Below, piece after piece: positions 3,140 through 61,022 of a stretch of 64,000 nt of DNA. The notes below the pieces were generated by a model. The model was not told the DNA's origin. It was given only the letters and a program-made list of their open reading frames with translations, and searched no databases. Source of the DNA: Nitrospirota bacterium (GTDB lineage Bacteria; Nitrospirota; UBA9217). Made by a program: the position numbers and the translations under genes. The number at the start of each line of letters is the position of its first letter. Position 1 is the stretch's first letter. Where the stretch lies: positions 1,632,001-1,696,000 of the forward strand of contig CAVVUN010000015.1 of assembly GCA_963751455.1 (NCBI GenBank). The letters run 5' to 3'.

Positions 3140-3153
3140 CAATTGCGGATTTC

Positions 3154-3254
3154 ACCCTGCACTCGCGCTGCGCACTGCTTAGACTCATTGTCTTACCATC
3201 TCGCTGAGAAGCGCGAGACGGGAATCAAGGACCTCATAAGCTCTGGGTGCAGGC
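3154..3254 (+). mobile_element. Mini insertion element (A/G)CCCTGC...GGGTGCAGGC, copy 1, inside a TTGCGGA heptamer array
   Basis: Same ends as 39323..39353 and 60967..61009; removing it restores ttgcggatttc|ggattgcggattgcgg. Confidence 0.7.
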
Positions 3255-3303
3255 GGATTGCGGATTGCGGAATAAAAGCACAAAATCATTAATCTGAAAT
3301 TAA

Positions 3304-4416
<1,113 letters not shown>

Positions 4417-25299: not shown

Positions 25300-25375
25300 G
25301 CGGGCGTAGCTCAGCTGGTAGAGTACAAGCTTCCCAAGCTTGGGGTCGCGGGTTCGAAACCCGTCGCCCGCTCCA
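25300..25375 (+). tRNA. tRNA-Gly (CCC)
   Basis: 76-nt cloverleaf GCGGGCG...CGCCCGC TCCA, anticodon loop TTCCCAA, GGTTCGAAAC T-loop. Confidence 0.97.
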
Positions 25376-29251: not shown

Positions 29252-29693
29252 GGGAAGCCTATTCCAGTTTCAAATCATTGGCCTTCGCTTGAGATACCTG
29301 TCTGTATCGCCGTTCGGCAAAATGAAACCAATATCTATTCTTACATTTTCCGGGGAATAAATAGGGCAGGCCGAAAAAAGGCCTGCCCGCTTGTAGTGGC
29401 TTTTTTTACTCAGAACTTCAACCCCGGATATTATTTACGGCGTATACTTGCCGCCGGTGTTGGGATAATCAGAAGGTTCTATAGTACCGCCCCAGATGAT
29501 CATCTGTGAACCTGTCCATAACCGCACCGCCGCTCTTGCTCATCCTTTTTACAGTATTGCCGAAACGTCAACATTTATGGGAAAAAAGTATTATAGTCAA
29601 ACTTTTTTTGCAGTATTTATAGGCTAAAAATCACCTTATTATTCAAAAATTCATTGACTTTAGATGTATCCTGGCTTATTGTTACACACGAAA

Positions 29694-29783
29694 AGCTGGG
29701 GGAGCCCCGAACCATTGGGCTGAGAGGTCCTTAGAGGACGACCCTTAGAACCTGATCCGGTAGTACCGGCGTAGGGAAGGCGA
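29694..29783 (+). ncRNA. TPP riboswitch
   Basis: GGGG...CTGAGA...ACCCTTAGAACCTGATCCGGTAGTACCGGCGTAGGGAAG upstream of thi genes; promoter TTGACT-17-TATTGT at 29654-29682. Confidence 0.93.
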
Positions 29784-29806
29784 GAAGAGAAACAAGATCA
29801 CTTTTC

Positions 29807-29836: not shown

Positions 29837-30169
29837 TGGAGCGAGCCGACCGTGTCGGCGTTGAAGTATGGAAGAATATAAAACCTATGCCCATACGCCG
29901 CCTCATTTGTATCGTACGGGCTCAAAATATTTTATTACCGCTATTACCTATGAGAAATCCTACTATGCCAGATTAAATTACCTTTACTATAACCCCGTGA
30001 AGCATGTTACGTCTCGGTGCCTGAGGAGTATCCTAGGGGAAGGTATTTTTTCGCAGCCGTACCGAACAAGACCGTCTCGACAGGCTTTTAAAGGAATACC
30101 CTTTTGATCGCGTAGAGGTTGAGGAACCTTATTGAATAATGAGGACGGCAACATGGTTGCCTCGGTCCA
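29837..30169 (+). mobile_element. Internally deleted RAYT (REP-associated Y1 transposase) pseudogene between two inverted REPs
   Basis: HTPPH..YFITA.TY joined directly to RLNY.YYNPVKH, then frameshifted (G)YV..PEEYP; no HUH core; flanked by tggagcgagccgaccgtgtcggcg and cggcaacatggttgcctcggtcca. Confidence 0.75.
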
Positions 30170-30181
30170 TATAAATAAAAT

Positions 30182-31234
30182 ATGAATATCTCTCTCAATG
30201 GCGAAAAAAAAGAAATTCCCGATAAAGTGACAGTCCTTGGTCTTCTGGAGTTTCTCAAAATCCAGCACCAGAGAGTCGCGGTCGAACTGAACGAGACGAT
30301 CGTCAAGAAAGACCGTTACGGCGACACAATCATTCAAGACGGAGATTTGCTGGAGGTTGTGAGCTTTATGGGTGGAGGGAATTTGGAGCGAGCCGACCGT
30401 GTCGGCGTAAATCACGGCAACATGGTTGCCTTGGTCCATAAAGGAGTAAATAGAATGACAGACGACAAACTGGTCATCGCAGGCATAGAATTCAAGTCCC
30501 GCCTTTGGGTCGGAACGGGCAAGTACAAAGATTTCGCGGAAACGAAAAAGGCGATCGAGATGTCCGGAACTGATGTGGTCACGGTCTCTGTCCGGCGTGT
30601 GAACATCATCGATAAGGGCAAAGAGAACCTTCTCGACTATATCGACCCGAAACTGTACAAGATATTGCCGAATACTGCCGGGTGTTATACTGCCAAGGAT
30701 GCGATCCGCACCGCGATGCTTGCGGCCGAGGCGGGCATCACGAAGCTTGTCAAGCTCGAGGTGATCGGCGACCAGAAGACGCTTTTCCCGGATAACGAGG
30801 CGACACTCGAAGCTGCAAAAATCCTGCTGAAGGAAGGCCTTATTGTCCTGCCCTATACGAGCGACGACCCGATCATGGCCAGAAAACTGGTTGACCTGGG
30901 GTGCCCGGCGATCATGCCGCTCGCTGCACCGATCGGTTCCGGGCTCGGTATCAGGAACCCTTACAATATCATGATCATCATGGAGACCGTAAAAGTGCCG
31001 ATCATCGTCGATGCCGGCGTGGGCACAGCTTCCGATGTTGCGCTTGCTATGGAGCTTGGCTGTGACGCGGTGCTGCTGAACACCGCAATCGCCGGCGCCC
31101 AGGACCCAATCGCAATGGCGGAGGCGATGAAGTACGGCGTGCTCGCGGGTCGGCTGGCATTCAAGGCTGGAAGGATACCGAAGAAACTGTATGCTACTGC
31201 CAGCAGTCCGATCGAGGGAATTATCGGGAGCTGA
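30182..31234 (+). CDS. thiG: ThiS-ThiG single ORF (sulfur carrier plus thiazole synthase); ThiG also has its own RBS and ATG at 30455
   Basis: ThiS VAVELN...EVVSFMGGG, a 25-aa linker, then [34 protein letters not shown]. Confidence 0.93.
30384..30438 (+). repeat. REP doublet (REPIN) inside the thiS-thiG ORF
   Basis: Same two ends as 29837..30169 with a spacer of a few bp. Confidence 0.85.
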
Positions 31235-36004: not shown

Positions 36005-36127
36005 ATTTGAAATTGAAGAATTAAGTGCTCAGGAATTGAAAAATGCATCCGGTACACTCCTGAATCCGCAAACCGGAAAAGCTTTTTAGCCGCAGAGAAC
36101 ACAGAGGCGATATCGAATCTGGAATAA

Positions 36128-36293
36128 TCCTAAAAACGGCATTTGAACACGGATGAACACGGAAACAGCGGATCAAAACAATGTGATAGAGCAAAAAGCC
36201 ATCTCGCCTTTTGGGTGAATCCATTACTGTTCGTAACTTCCTATAAATCCGTGTTGATCAGATTTTATCCGTGTCCAACTGCTTTTTTCAGGA
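36128..36293. mobile_element. MITE-like element, twin of 313..478
   Basis: Near-identical sequence with TAA on both flanks; sits inside a ccgcagagaacacagag...ctctgtgg palindromic repeat. Confidence 0.8.
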
Positions 36294-36347
36294 TAATTCC
36301 TCTGTGGCACTTTTCTGATTTGTGTTGCAGCTGACTCGATCATTGCT

Positions 36348-38476: not shown

Positions 38477-39340
38477 GTGCGGATGATTGAACAAAAATGG
38501 GATCGTCTCAAAGCGCTGCTTCGGGAAATGCAGCATGCGGTGATCGCCTATTCCGGAGGCGTTGACAGTTCCCTTCTTCTCAAAGCCGCATCCGAAGTAC
38601 TAGGTCCTCATTTCATCGCCGTCACCGCGGTTTCAGAAACATACCCGCCGCGTGAACTCGATGCAGCCACGGCGTTCGCCCGTTCCTTGGGCATAACCCA
38701 CCGCGTTATCCGAACCTCAGAACTTTTATCCGAAGATTTTGTTAAAAACCCGCCCGAGAGATGCTATTTCTGCAAAAAGGAATTATTCGCCAGGCTGAGG
38801 CAGATTGCTGACACCGAGGGCATTACCTTTGTCCTTGATGGCGCCAATACGGATGATGTCAAGGATTATCGTCCCGGGTCGAAAGCGGCAGCCGAATTTT
38901 CTGTAAGAAGCCCGCTCAGGGAGGCCGACTTTTCGAAATCGGATGTCCGCGAATGCGCGCGCATGCTGTCCGTCCCCTCGTGGGACAAGCCGTCGCTCGC
39001 CTGCCTCTCTTCCCGGATCCCGTACGGAACCAGAATAACGCCCGGGTTGCTGCATACGATCGACGCGGCCGAGGACCTGCTGCGCGGACTCGGTTTGCGC
39101 CAGGTTCGTGTCCGCCATCACGGAGATACCGCACGAATCGAGGCGGACCCTGCTGATTTTCACGCACTATTCGCAGATGGAGCGGCCTTGAAGATCGTTG
39201 CCCGGTTCAAAGAACTGGGATATACTTACGTCTGCCTTGATCTTGAAGGGTACCGGACCGGGAGTATGAATGAGGGACTTATGGAGCTAGCCGACCGTGT
39301 CGGCGTAAAAAATAACGGCAACACCCTGCTCTTGCGATAA
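38477..39340 (+). CDS. LarE-like ATP-dependent sulfur insertase (PP-loop)
   Basis: IAYSGGVDS, RCYFCK, DYRPG, ACLSSRIPYG, GYRTGSMN. Confidence 0.88.
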   Translation: MRMIEQKWDRLKALLREMQHAVIAYSGGVDSSLLLKAASEVLGPHFIAVTAVSETYPPRELDAATAFARSLGITHRVIRTSELLSEDFVKNPPERCYFCKKELFARLRQIADTEGITFVLDGANTDDVKDYRPGSKAAAEFSVRSPLREADFSKSDVRECARMLSVPSWDKPSLACLSSRIPYGTRITPGLLHTIDAAEDLLRGLGLRQVRVRHHGDTARIEADPADFHALFADGAALKIVARFKELGYTYVCLDLEGYRTGSMNEGLMELADRVGVKNNGNTLLLR

Positions 39341-39370
39341 CGCGGGTGCAGGCACGGTTGCCTCGGTCCA
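39282..39370 (+). repeat. REP doublet carrying nested mini insertion 39323..39353
   Basis: tggagctagccgaccgtgtcggcg...cggcaac[accctgc..gggtgcaggc]acggttgcctcggtcca. Confidence 0.85.
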
Positions 39371-39382
39371 AAAGGGGAAAAA

Positions 39383-55209: not shown

Positions 55210-55267
55210 TGGATCAAGGCAACCGTGTTGCCGTTCATTGTAACGCCGACGCGGTCGGCTCGGTCCA
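55210..55267 (-). repeat. REP doublet, reverse orientation
   Basis: tggatcaaggcaaccgtgttgccg...cgccgacgcggtcggctcggtcca. Confidence 0.8.
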
Positions 55268-55777: not shown

Positions 55778-58700
55778 ATGAAGAAGATTGAAAACAGCAA
55801 GCTGTACAGCGTGGACGATCTCAAACAAACGCGCGACGCCATGGACTTCATGGCGAACCTCCTGCAGTCCTCCACGGAGTATTCCATCATCGGCAAGGAC
55901 CTCGACGGAAAGGTCCTGCTCTGGAACGAGGGCGCCCGCCGGATTTACGGGTACGACTCCGAGGAAGTGGTCGGCAAGGCGAACTCCTCCATCCTCCACA
56001 CCGAGGAAGACGTCAAGTCCGGCAAGCCTCACCAGATGATAGATGCGGCCCTGCGCGAGGGTAAATGGGAAGGCACGATCAACCGGCGCAGGAAGAACGG
56101 GGAGCATCTTCAACGCGCGCGTCGTCATCACCCCCCGGCGGGACGAAGCGGGCAAGCCCATAGGCTTTCTGCTCATCTCGAAGGACATCTCGAACGAGAT
56201 GCGCTTTACCGAGCAGCTCAGGAAGGCGAAGCTCTTCGACAGCGCCATCGTGTCGAACGCCCAGGAGGCGGTGGACTTCATCACGAACATCCTCGAGTCC
56301 TCCACCGAGTATTCGGTCATCGGTAAGGACCTGGACGGCAAGATCCTGCTCTGGAACGAAGGCGCCCGGCGTCTCTACGGGTTCGAGCCGGAAGAGGTCG
56401 TGGGCAAGGCCAACTCCTCGATCCTCCATACGGAGGAGGACGTGGCCACGGGAAAACCCCGGGAGATCCTGGACGCGGCCCTGCACAACGGCAAATGGGA
56501 AGGCACGATCACCCGCCGCAGGAAAAACGGCGAGCTCTTCAAGGCCCGGGTCGTCATCACCCCCCGCCGCGACTCGCTCGGCCGGGCCATCGGCTTCCTG
56601 CTCATCTCGAAGGACATCTCGGACGAAATCCGGCTCACCGAACAGTTAAAGTCAACCCAGTTTTATACCCGGTCGCTCATCGAATCGAACATCGACGCTC
56701 TCATGGCCACGGACCCGCTCGGCATCATAAGCGACGTGAACAAGCAGATGGTGACCCTGACCGGCTACACGCGGGACGAACTAATCGGCTCTCCGTTCAA
56801 GAACTATTTCACCGATCCCGAGCGTGCGGAGGAAGGCATCAAGCTGGTGCTGCGCGAGGGCAAGGTCACGAACTACGAACTCACCGCCCTTTCCAAGACC
56901 GGCAAGAAAACGGTGGTCTCCTACAACGCGTCCACGTTCCGCGACGCCGAGGGCAAGCTCCAGGGCGTGTTCGCGGCGGCCCGCGACATTACCGAGCAGA
57001 AAGAGCTGGAGCAGAGGCTCCGCGAGTCCGAAGCTTACAACCGCGGGCTCATTGAGGCCTCGGTGGACGGCCTGATCACGGTCGATCCCACGGGCTCGAT
57101 CTCCGACGTGAACGCGCGCATGTGCCAGATGTCGGGCTATACCCGGGAGGAACTTACCGGCACGCCCTTCATCGATTATTTCGTGGACAGCGAACGTGCG
57201 GACTCGGGCGTCCGTCAGACCTTCGATCAGGGGGTGGTCACGGATTACGCGCTTACCATGGCCACCCGGGACGGCAGGCAGCTGATCGTGTCGTTCAACG
57301 CGTCGGTGTTTAAAGACCCCTCGGGAGAGGTGCGCGGGATCTTCGCCTCCGCGCGCGACATCACCGATCAGGCGAGGCTCCAGACCCAGATCTCTGAAGA
57401 ACGGGCTTACAACCGGGGTCTCATCGAGGCTTCCCTGGACGGCCTGATCACGGTGGATCCCATGCTGAACATCACGGACGTGAACGAGACCATGTGCCGC
57501 ATGGCCGGCTACGCCAGAAAGGAACTCATCGGCTCGCCGTTCCCGGACTATTTCACCGATGCCAGGCGGGCGGCCGAGGGTGTCAGGCTCACCCTCGACA
57601 AGGGGGCCGTGACCAACTACGAGCTTACCCTCCACAGCAAAGACGGAGCGGAGCAACTGGTCTCCTTCAACGCCGCCATATTCAAGGACGAGGCCGGCGC
57701 GGTGCGCGGGATCTTCGCCAGCGCCCGTAACATCACGGAGCAGACGAAATTACAGGCCCAGCTTGCCGAAGAGCGGGCGTACAACCGCGGCCTCATCGAG
57801 GCCTCCGTGGACGGCCTGGTCACGGTCGACGAGGCCATGCTGATCACGGACGTGAACGAGACCATGTGCCGCATGGCCGGCAGGACCAGAAACCAGATCA
57901 TCGGGTCTTCGTTCCCCACTTACTTCTCCGAACGGGACCTGGCGGCCGAGGGCGTGCACCTCACGTTTAAAGAAGGGTCCGTCACCAACTACGTTTTGAC
58001 CCTGCAAGCCGTGAAAGGGCAAAAGGTGCCGGTCTCTTTCAACGCGGCCGTGTTCAAGGACGCCTCCGGCAAGGTGCGCGGCATCTTCGCCTCGGCCCGC
58101 GACATCACCGAGCAGAAGAAGCTCGAAGCCCAGCTCCAGGCCTCGCAGTTCTACACCCGGTCGCTCATCGAATCGAACATCGACGCACTCATGACCACGG
58201 ACCCGGTCGGCATCATCACTGACGTAAACCAGCAGATGGAGGCCCTTACCGGCCATACCCGTGAAGAGCTGATCGGCTCTCCCTTCAAGAACTTCTTCAC
58301 CGAGCCGCAAAGGGCCGAGGAAGGCATCAAAATCGTGGTCCGCGAAGGCAGGGTCACGAACTACGAACTCACGGCCAGGAGCAAACAGGGCAAGAAAACG
58401 GTCGTGTCCTACAACGCCGCCACGTTTGCCGACCGCGATAGGAAGCTTTCGGGTGTGTTCGCCGCAGCCCGCGACATCACCGAACAGAAAAAACTGGAGC
58501 AGCAGTTACGGGATTCCCAGGCGTACAACCGGGGCCTCATCGAGGCCTCCGTTGACGGCCTCATCACCGTGGACCCCGAGGGCATCATCAGCGACGTTAA
58601 CGACCGCATGTGCCAGATGAGCGGCTACACCCGGGGCGAGCTGATCGGCACGCCGTTCTCCGACTATTTCACGGACCCGGCCCTGGCCACCGCGGGCGTC

Positions 58701-60725
58701 AAGGAAACCTTCGAGAAGGGGATCGTGACCGAGTACGCGCTGACCCTGATTTCCCGGACTCGTCGATTCCTGCAGGTGTCGTTCAACGCCTCGGTGTTCA
58801 AGGACCCGTCCGGCAGCGTGCGCGGCATCTTCGCCTCCGCCCGCGACATCACGGATCGCGTCCGCCTTGAAGAGCAGCTTCGTGAGCAGCAGACGTATCT
58901 CCGCGGGCTCATCGAGTCCTCGGTGGACGGCCTCATCACCGTGGACCCCGAAGGGTTCATCACGGACGTAAACGAGCAGATGTGCCGCATGACCGGGTAC
59001 AGCAGAGACGAGTTGATCGGGTCGTCCTTCAGGCAATACTTCACCGAACCCCAGCGGGCCGACGTCGGCGTCAAATCCACCTTCGCCCAGGGCGTGGTCA
59101 CAAACTACGCCCTGGTCCTCAAAACAAAAACCGGCCGGAAGGCCACGGTGTCCTTCAACGCGTCGGTCTTCCGCGCGGGAGACGGAAGGGTGCAGGGCAT
59201 CTTCGCCTCGGCCCGCGACATCAGCGAACAGGCCCGGCTCCAGACCCAGCTCGTGGATCAGCAGGCCTACAACCGGTCGCTGATCGAAGCCTCCGCGGAC
59301 GCGCTCTTCGCCATTGCGCCCGACGGCGCGATCACGGACGTGAACGAGGAAGCGACCCGGCTCACCGGCTACTCGCGGAAACACCTGGTCAACTCCGGGT
59401 TCGCGGGATACTTCACCGAGCCCCTTCGCGCGAGCGAAGGCGTCAGCCAGACGCTCGCGCAGGGCCGCGTGCTCGCGTACGAACTGGTCCTGATCACGCG
59501 CCAGAATAGAAGGATCGCGGTCTCCTTCAACGCGGGCGTATTCTCCGACGCGGCGGGAAAACAGCTCGGCATCCTTGCCGGCGCCCGCGACATCACGGAC
59601 CAGAAGAAACTGGAGCAGCAGCTTCGCGATCAGCAGTTCTACTCCCGGTCCCTGATCGAGTCCAACATCGACGCGCTCATGACCACGGACCCGGTGGGAA
59701 TCATCACGGACGTGAACCAGCAGATGGAGGCCCTGACCGGCTACAACCGGGAGGAGCTCATCGGCGCGCCGTTCAAGACCTACTTCACCGACCCCAAGCT
59801 GGCCGAGGAAGGCATCCGGCTCGTGCTCAGGGAAGGCAACGTTACGAACTACGAGCTCACCGCCAGGAGCAAGCAGGGCAGGGAAACGGTCGTGTCCTAC
59901 AACGCCACCACGTTCGCGGACCGGGACGGAAAACTGCAGGGCGTGTTCGCCGCGGCCCGGGACGTGACGGAACGCAAGCGTTTCGAGCAGACGCTGCAGG
60001 AGAAGAGCGTTGAAATGGAGAACGCCAACCTGTCCAAGGACCGCTTCCTGGCCAGCATGAGCCACGAGCTCCGGACCCCGCTAAACGCCGTCATCGGGTT
60101 CACCGGCACGCTGCTCATGAAGCTCCCCGGGCCTTTGACGAGCGATCAGGAAGGCCAGCTCCAGAACATCTCGACCAGCGCCAAGCATCTGCTTCTGCTC
60201 ATCAATGATCTGCTGGATCTGGCCAAGATCGAGTCGGGCAAGGTCGAGCTCAAGCTCGAACCCATCTCGTGCCAGAGCATTGTGCAGGAAGTGGCTTCGA
60301 CACTCCTGCCCATGGCGGCCAGCAAGGGCCTCAAGCTCACCGTCATCGTGCCGGACAGAGAACTGGTGCTGAATACGGACCGGCGGTCCCTTTCCCAGGT
60401 CCTCTTGAACCTCACCTACAACGCCATTAAATTTACCGAAAAGGGCGAGGTGAAGCTGGAGCTGAGGCACAACCACCACGGCGGGCTCGTGCGGATCGAA
60501 TTCCGCGTGATCGACACGGGCATCGGCATCAAACCCGAGGACCAGGCAATGCTCTTCCAGGCGTTCACGCAGGTGGATTCCTCGAGCGCACGCCGTTACG
60601 AAGGCACCGGCCTGGGCCTGCACCTGAGCCAGAAGCTCGCCGAGCTCCTGAACGGCCGCATCTCCTTCAAGAGCGACTACGGCAAGGGGAGCGAGTTTAT
60701 GATGGTGTTGGAAGAGCAGCGGTGA
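55778..60725 (+). CDS. Cytoplasmic histidine kinase with 11 PAS domains; +1 frameshift near 56100-56107
   Basis: PAS1 starts in ORF 55745 and continues in ORF 56043; ends with SHELRTPL, DTGIG and GTGLGL. Confidence 0.85.
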
Positions 60726-60804: not shown

Positions 60805-61022
60805 GTCATTCCGGCTTGTCCGGAATCATTTTGCCACACGACATAATGAAAAGATCGATTTCGGGCAAGCCGGAATGACGGTCTGTTGTTCGCCGATTTT
60901 ACAGCCTTTGACGTCATTCCCGCTTGTCGGGAATCTTTTTTCAGAATGACGGGAAGGATTCCGGGCGCCCTGCACTCGCGCTATGCACTCGTAATCGCTG
61001 GGTGCAGGCAAGCCGGAATGAC
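60805..61022. repeat. Two GTCATTCC(C/G)GCTTGTC(C/G)GGAATC inverted doublets; last arm has mini insertion 60967..61009
   Basis: Four arms in alternating orientation; intact arm at 60857-60879. Confidence 0.8.

Follow-up and report, generated by a model that had tools for sequence, protein, structure and literature searches.

Short DNA units that share the same ends and each interrupt a different repeat raise the question of whether a gene-less DNA of a few dozen bases can move, and by what means. The initial annotation had located three such units in the window, which is the whole 64,000-nt stretch analysed here (C15:1632001-1696000 of the source genome, G000). All three were present where it had placed them, with the ends described and each in a different repeat family, although their boundaries shift one base to the left (3153-3253, 39322-39352 and 60966-61008). 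The unit is called element A below. The first copy lies between argS and tgt; the second precedes purD, and the third a kinase/AAA gene.

The three copies in the window

The features at the three sites are as follows.

3140..3272, + strand: host 1, an ATT(G/T)CGG heptamer array split by A, directly 3′ of the argS stop codon
3153..3253, + strand: element A, composite copy, the outer A (3153-3174 and 3233-3253) being split by B
3175..3232, + strand: element B, 58 nt, a 7-9-nt leader and a long imperfect hairpin, inserted in A before the C of its second CTCR motif
39280..39372, + strand: host 2, a REP doublet (GCCGAC arm and GGCAAC arm), with empty siblings at 30145, 30414 and 55210
39322..39352, + strand: element A, short subfamily, 31 nt, with basal stem, small hairpin and CAGG tail
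55210..55234, − strand: empty sibling of the host-2 arm, whose reverse complement is the restored site of copy 2
60857..60879, + strand: empty sibling of the host-3 arm, with one mismatch to the restored site
60911..61022, + strand: host 3, a CGTC-type REP pair (GTCATTCC...GGAATGAC), with A in the loop of the second arm
60966..61008, + strand: element A, typical 43-nt copy, with YRCCC stem, branched hairpin, TC/TC opposition, 4-nt bulge and CAGG tail

Removal of B from the composite copy gave a 43-nt A, and removal of A gave an empty site with 36 matches in the genome. The heptamer array of host 1 is unbroken at the orthologous argS-tgt gap of one relative (locus L254). The restored site of the second copy was the reverse complement of the 55210-55234 arm, as had been claimed, and it also matched 30145-30171 and 30414-30440. 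The REP family of host 2 also flanks a RAYT-like Y1 gene at C15:1722108. The third copy scored 68.7 bits with model R1, and its excision restored the sibling at 60857-60879 except for one base, again in agreement with the earlier reading. A CGTC-type REP family is described in PMC3733652.

The window also contains a 173-nt repeat (310-482 and 36125-36297, 99% identical) built from CACGGATGAA-type units, 372-nt repeats (PAS-like by reading) within a 1560-aa ORF (56043-60725), a TPP riboswitch (29688-29795) and a tRNA gene (25300-25372).

Copy number, size and ends of element A

In the source genome, 94 simple copies of A matched a sequence-only pattern, whereas two shuffled genomes gave 1 and 0. 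With iterative excision, by which nested copies are resolved, the count was 191, compared with 2 in one shuffled genome. One of the 191 was discarded as a chance match, leaving a working set of 190. The genome-wide search suggested by the initial annotation thus revealed about 190 copies, far more than three. The sequences of 182 of the 190 copies are distinct.

Element A is a gene-less unit of 26-46 nt, typically 42-44 nt, with no coding capacity. Its short form measures 26-33 nt and the other copies 40-46 nt. The layout is YRCCC...GGGYR followed by a 4-5-nt tail. Among the 191 copies, the tail was CAGG in 119, CAAG in 21, CGAG in 6 and other sequences in the rest, and it reads CYYG on the minus strand. 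The short subfamily (14 copies in 5 host classes) retained the basal stem. The middle of the unit, previously called variable, does vary in length and sequence, but it is structured rather than freely variable, and the 101-nt copy is an A with a nested B.

The first and last bases of the stem formed a C-G pair in 156 and a T-A pair in 26 of the 191 copies. In 152 copies from other genomes, collected with a pattern that did not force this pair, the counts were 131 and 16. Since the first base covaries with the last base of GGGYR, the leading C is A's own first base and the trailing C belongs to the host. Each unit had been said to follow a C; that C is part of the element, and the actual rule is insertion before a host C. 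The host base after A was C in 179/191 copies of the source genome; the tail rule used to call the ends favours C, yet 153/191 have a C directly after a fixed 4-nt tail. The same was true of 145/152 copies from other genomes, and across dereplicated sites this was the only target position that was nearly fixed (225/239).

Insertion sites and host repeats

When the flanks of each copy were joined, the resulting 20-mer was found unbroken elsewhere in the source genome for 130/190 sites (2 mismatches allowed), compared with 31/190 random intergenic control sites before a C. Models with one extra base or one lost base matched at only 18/190 and 14/190 sites. The excess of the seamless model over the shifted models and the control indicates that insertion is seamless and biased to repeats. 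The earlier observation that excision restores the host pattern thus extends to the whole genome, and the duplication of at most 1 bp allowed by it is reduced to zero.

On the basis of sequence patterns, 162 of the 190 copies were assigned to 14 classes of host repeats. These classes include the following.

8-9-mers of the kind flanking GxxExxY genes: 45 copies of A
A itself: 22 copies
ATT(G/T)CGG heptamers: 22 copies
REP doublet flanking the RAYT-like gene: 12 copies
Longer CCCCTGCATCCCG repeat: 12 copies
B: 6 copies

Most of the remaining 28 sites resemble degenerate repeats by eye and a few do not, so the claim that the unit occurs only inside other repeats holds for the great bulk of the copies and fails in its strict form. 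The main subtype used 13 host classes, and the T-type and short subtypes used 5 each. There were 131 distinct 8-nt target contexts, several sites were used per host, and both strands of one host were used.

Empty sites showed slightly more structure than random intergenic sites (43/190 and 22/150, respectively, had z<-2), no pairing signal was seen at the cut, and many hosts are plain tandem 7-9-mers. With so small a difference, a local hairpin is not a general target signal, which disagrees with the hairpin-guided targeting proposed at first. For guide pairing between element and target, no complementary covariation appeared among the top of 480 tests; the top associations reflect host-linked subfamilies. 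The excess of tail-target identity (233 vs 208) was small and is confounded by the same subfamilies.

A copy of A was mostly intergenic (173/190). Sixteen copies lie within 12 called ORFs, in both orientations, and all of these ORFs remain open. Most in-gene copies are inside another repeat in the same loop. Five of the ORFs with in-frame A are cobalamin enzymes according to Pfam. At locus L210 (C9:85919-96417), a single cobalamin operon carries six in-frame copies, spread over five of its genes and both orientations, and their bulge variants are stop-free. Other in-frame copies lie in ORFs whose putative identities, by reading, are a nifE/N fusion, comDE, a deacetylase, a radical SAM protein and a pseudopilin. 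Excision of A restored no tRNA in the source genome, with 53 tRNA calls before and after. A short copy at C15:1034248 stands behind a tRNA-like 5′ stretch, and its excision gave no tRNA call.

The orientation of A was weakly biased with the flanking genes (87:53, p = 0.005) and with the leading strand (92:63, p = 0.02), unlike that of strongly replication-biased single-strand transposons. This weak strand bias, together with hosts that are all repeats able to loop out, would suit template switching, in which repeat DNA that is stalled or nicked would acquire a copy of A while it is replicated or gap-repaired, without a dedicated cutting enzyme. No mobilizer was found in the search for a long copy, among the neighbouring genes or in five of the six gene families described below, which also fits. 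Template switching predicts poorly, however, the base-exact ends and the nearly fixed host C across unrelated hosts. The junctions have no microhomology, since the host CA and the element CA are both retained, and A is present or absent within genera. We consider this explanation unlikely.

Element B and nesting

Element B measures about 58 nt. It is found nested within A and within B, in head-to-tail tandems, and also outside A. In the source genome, 39 copies of B were excised from A. The exact B pattern was present in only 2 of the 64 genomes of the family (G000 and G011). Examples besides the window copy are C14:28614 (−), C15:1002610 (+) and C2:308633. The nesting types were A in A, B in A and A in B, with up to three levels. 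One head-to-tail pair of A was found (L135), and several tandems of B.

A third small family in the source genome, with a CTTCGAC...GCTCAG core, gave 38 matches once A and B were removed. It has a similar TCG/CTC motif, and some of its copies are within REPs and 8-9-mer repeats; one example is upstream of C15:331964.

Fold of element A

The fold of A is a branched hairpin comprising a 5-bp basal stem, one mismatch, 2 bp, a 4-nt bulge and an apical hairpin. In an alignment of 58 copies, 93% of the cells were paired and 67 double changes were counted, and 0/500 shuffles scored as high. This score is inflated, since 32 of the 58 rows come from the source genome, where a pairing filter contributed to their detection and diverse copies were chosen by hand, and kinship among the sequences may exceed the shuffle control without any structure. 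Sets collected by sequence only, without the pairing filter, gave the same covariation. The structure was retained across 15 genera. These covariation data support conservation of A as a folded single strand.

The alternative terminal pairing CCTGCAC/GTGCAGG was rejected, its covariation being no better than in shuffles, although standard DNA folding energies favour it on both strands over the covarying fold. In the apical hairpin, the TC/TC opposition was present in 143/143 parsed copies, which the pattern requires, and a C/A opposition in 136/143. The minus strand is the likelier folded strand by our reading, since on it TC/TC reads as tandem G.A and C/A as a G.T wobble, and the tail turns into a 5′ CCTG tag, which resembles the GTAG of REPs. 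Stem position 2 (A.C 56, A-T 52, G.T 31) favoured neither strand.

Distribution and evidence of mobility

With model R1, A was detected in 41/64 genomes of one family, probably of the Nitrospirota. The distribution was patchy, and A was present or absent within genera. It was found in 0/114 genomes sampled from other families of the phylum. Among the matches listed in a GTDB-wide pattern scan, 77/80 were titled Nitrospirota or a synonym, on which the naming of the family is based, and the three genomes titled otherwise had one, one and 16 copies.

Relatives lacked A at three orthologous sites: none of 5 had it in the argS-tgt gap, none of 5 had it in the gap before purD, and all 12 readable cobJ loops (13 loci fetched) were free of A. 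It was absent even where the same host repeat was present. The precise insertion of a gene-less element with a preference for repeats, as first described, is thus supported by both the empty-site test and these comparisons. The orthologous gaps of the relatives (corresponding to window 3140-3306 and 39340-39382) and the cobJ loop often hold a different repeat family, namely heptamers, 8-9-mers, CGTC hairpins or CCCTCACC hairpins, and these places are hot spots for hosts (L253-L262 and L265-L276).

If A were a non-mobile functional element, such as a protein-binding site or regulatory RNA that arose independently at many places, its structure could be conserved across genera and its position mostly intergenic, as observed. 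Yet A interrupts other repeats and A itself, lies in frame within enzyme loops in both orientations, and is missing at orthologous sites. Such an origin is highly improbable.

The nearest-neighbour copy of A was in the same host class for 75/176 copies, compared with 16 expected after shuffling. Since copies in the same host resemble each other, some composites of host plus A spread with the host, and the spread of hosts with A already inside is part of the copy number. An identical A in the same CGTC host was found in another genus. Two prophage-like IMG/VR records contained 3 and 2 copies, inside the same host repeats, and they are a possible route of A between species. These records (L167-L171) have tail and capsid-type ORFs, with the host-plus-A composites between genes. 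All of this would be expected if A were mostly a passenger, with a rare and ancient entry per host family followed by spread through host mobility. That explanation accounts for part of the count and not for the entries: it conflicts with the many target contexts, the several sites per host, the use of both strands of one host, the three-deep nesting, and the absence of A from orthologous sites where the same host is present. We regard it as improbable.

Search for the mobilizing enzyme

The initial annotation had attributed the insertions to an HUH/Y1-type enzyme and had looked to a long version of the unit enclosing a transposase or nuclease ORF. No such version was found in the source genome: when each unmatched left end was combined with unmatched right ends up to 4 kb away, the results were all chance pairs or nested repeats. 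ORF clusters beside A (the source genome and 156 loci) consisted only of housekeeping and signalling families. The source genome has 33 Y1 matches, and none is bracketed by A ends; Y1 genes were flanked by other repeats, including one host of A. A search for IS91-type Y2 gave no match in the source genome, and the same search gave no match in any control genome.

Six gene families were compared between the A-positive and A-negative genomes of the family; many of these genomes are fragmented, so the misses are weak evidence.

Integron integrase: 26/41 A-positive vs 6/23 A-negative (p = 0.008)
GxxExxY: 36/41 vs 15/23
Four-helix bundle: 33/41 vs 17/23
IS110: 22/41 vs 15/23
Y1: 32/41 vs 22/23
Reverse transcriptase: 19/41 vs 17/23

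Y1/HUH, GxxExxY, the four-helix bundle, reverse transcriptase and IS110 were rejected as required partners, as none tracks A. With no bracketed Y1 gene, no long copy, no tracking, and the C-T cut described below at a single junction, the attribution to HUH/Y1 was not supported. A lost or divergent HUH enzyme would escape these tests, so HUH enzymes are kept among the candidates.

Movement of A through a structured RNA, by reverse splicing or a template jump followed by reverse transcription, would be compatible with the covarying fold, whose G.A and G.T-type pairs suit RNA too, with the slight coding-strand bias, and with six reverse transcriptase matches in the source genome. Reverse transcriptase was nevertheless missing from 22/41 A-positive genomes, some of them rich in A (about 100, 90 and 77 copies), and proportionally commoner among the A-negative genomes. 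Both orientations of A occur inside genes, and Rfam gave no match at any of the three window copies. The RNA route is quite improbable.

The integron integrase was the clearest positive of the six families. It was matched in 25/34 genomes with at least 5 copies of A vs 7/30 others (p = 0.0001; within-genus permutation p = 0.013), with the reservation that six families were tried, that the threshold of at least 5 copies was picked after seeing the data, and that related genomes are not independent. Nine genomes with at least 5 copies had no integrase match, and six had an integrase and no A. The integron integrase is a statistical lead on the mobilizer, not the answer. Integron integrases were present in 32/64 genomes of the family, many of them in open frames of 450-560 codons compared with the 315-position model. 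Those of the source genome are at C1:554479 and C2:447629, and no attC sites were found near them by the patterns used.

Comparison with known elements

The annotation had not recognised A as a named element. No description of the family was found in the literature searched, which covers few subscription papers, although its kind appears to have been described. In its behaviour, A appears closest to the SDR elements of Nostoc. SDR1-8 of Nostoc and its relatives, attributed to Elhai et al. (2008, Genome Res 18:1484), are reportedly very small, gene-less, structure-conserved units of 21-27 nt. Their insertion is said to be precise and to target heptamer repeats, other mini-elements and their own copies, and they are not known to have a mobilizer. 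A is likewise a very small, dispersed, non-coding unit with compensatory changes and precise entry into heptamers, mini-elements and itself. It differs in length (40-46 nt, or 26-33 nt for the short form, against the reported 21-27 nt) and in phylum. It also differs in entering at least 14 classes of host under a host-C rule, in its mutual nesting with B, and in its presence in frame in enzymes and in prophage-like records. Nostoc SDR elements are cited in PMC4390886, PMC3116915 and PMC2884548, the first of which states that SDR5 inserts precisely into HIP1.

REP/REPIN-RAYT systems have a 5′ GTAG/GTGG or CGTC tag and a RAYT gene flanked by the repeat, according to PMC3733652, PMC6006769 and PMC3479197, and the E. 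coli TnpA-REP cuts between C and T (PMC3479197). A resembles REPs in its 4-nt 5′ tag and imperfect hairpin on the minus strand, its size, its high copy number and its mostly intergenic position. Unlike them, it has a CYYG tag, not GTAG or CGTC, occurs as single copies and not doublets, and uses REPs as hosts. Assignment to REP/REPIN-RAYT was rejected, because no RAYT gene is flanked by A and C followed by T is found at 1/190 junctions on either strand.

A shares with IS200/IS605 derivatives the absence of target duplication, the hairpin ends and a likely single-strand intermediate, and differs in having one branched hairpin in place of separate left and right ends and no strong replication bias. 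PATEs are gene-less derivatives of IS200/IS605. A was rejected as an IS200/IS605 or PATE element, since the cut is not preceded on its 5′ side by a fixed target of 4-5 nt and the source genome has no parent IS with A ends around tnpA. It was also rejected as a MITE, the CCTGCAC/GTGCAGG ends showing no covariation and target duplication being absent. The non-autonomous module of IS110 has a fixed target of about 14 nt. This identity was rejected too, given the IS110 counts above and the 131 target contexts of A.

Rickettsia palindromic elements (RPE) reside in frame inside working enzyme genes, as indicated in PMC3733652. A shares this property; its in-gene copies, however, are a minority (16/190) and are mostly inside another repeat in the same loop, and A is much smaller.

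For integron cassettes, the literature gives the R box RYYYAAC/GTTRRRY (PMC7439510), a rule of one-base identity between attC recombination partners (PMC2811028), and an off-site target consensus GWT, that is, AW before the cut and C after it on the cut strand (10.1101/2022.09.11.507474). A is similar to a cassette in being a folded single strand that starts at a C pairing with G, inserts without duplication and co-occurs with the integrase. The cut is likewise just before a C, with A before it in 104/190 sites. The targets of A are repeats and not attG-like sites. C-starting copies precede a C in 154/160 cases and T-starting copies in 21/26, and the latter breaks one-base identity. Assignment as an attC cassette was rejected, since the R box is absent from the alignment and the AW-C consensus fits 16/190 sites.

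Proposed mechanism

We lean, with modest confidence, towards the following mechanism. A would leave and enter DNA as a folded single strand, probably in the form of a tiny closed circle. An enzyme encoded elsewhere would read the structure and cut and rejoin the strand, presumably by phosphotyrosine chemistry. A would then land without duplication just before a host C, at repeats likely to expose single strands. The single-strand intermediate is suggested by compensatory pairs that are kept while the loops vary freely and 182 of the 190 copies differ. The circle is suggested by the joined ends, which close the basal stem over the 4-nt tail, and by the existence of the A-A pair and the B tandems; these tandems fit a circular intermediate without proving it.

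As to the enzyme acting in trans, we would give an unknown or host enzyme and a divergent HUH enzyme about equal shares of this probability, and an integron-type integrase a slightly smaller one. We also speculate, as a doubtful but specific version, that A is a minimal, gene-less DNA circle of about 42 bases using an integron-type tyrosine recombinase, or a related structure-reading one, to enter looped-out repeats. If true, A would be a cassette of which only the hairpin needed for recombination is left, following a target rule of its own, and the enzyme for all SDR-like mini-elements would be in hand.

Significance

To our knowledge, SDR-like elements have not been linked to any enzyme, and no mechanism has been established for the movement of mobile DNAs of less than 50 bases. 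A is a real, well-defined family, although its kind appears to have been described already in the SDR elements. It makes mobility below 50 bases testable, as it offers exact ends, a one-base target rule, a fold supported by covariation and natural compensatory variants. Across the 64 related genomes its presence is cleanly on or off, and the integron integrase provides one statistical lead. A is therefore a clean test case for the spread of the smallest mobile DNAs. In its hosts, it also adds peptide to working enzymes, as the six in-frame copies in one cobalamin operon illustrate.
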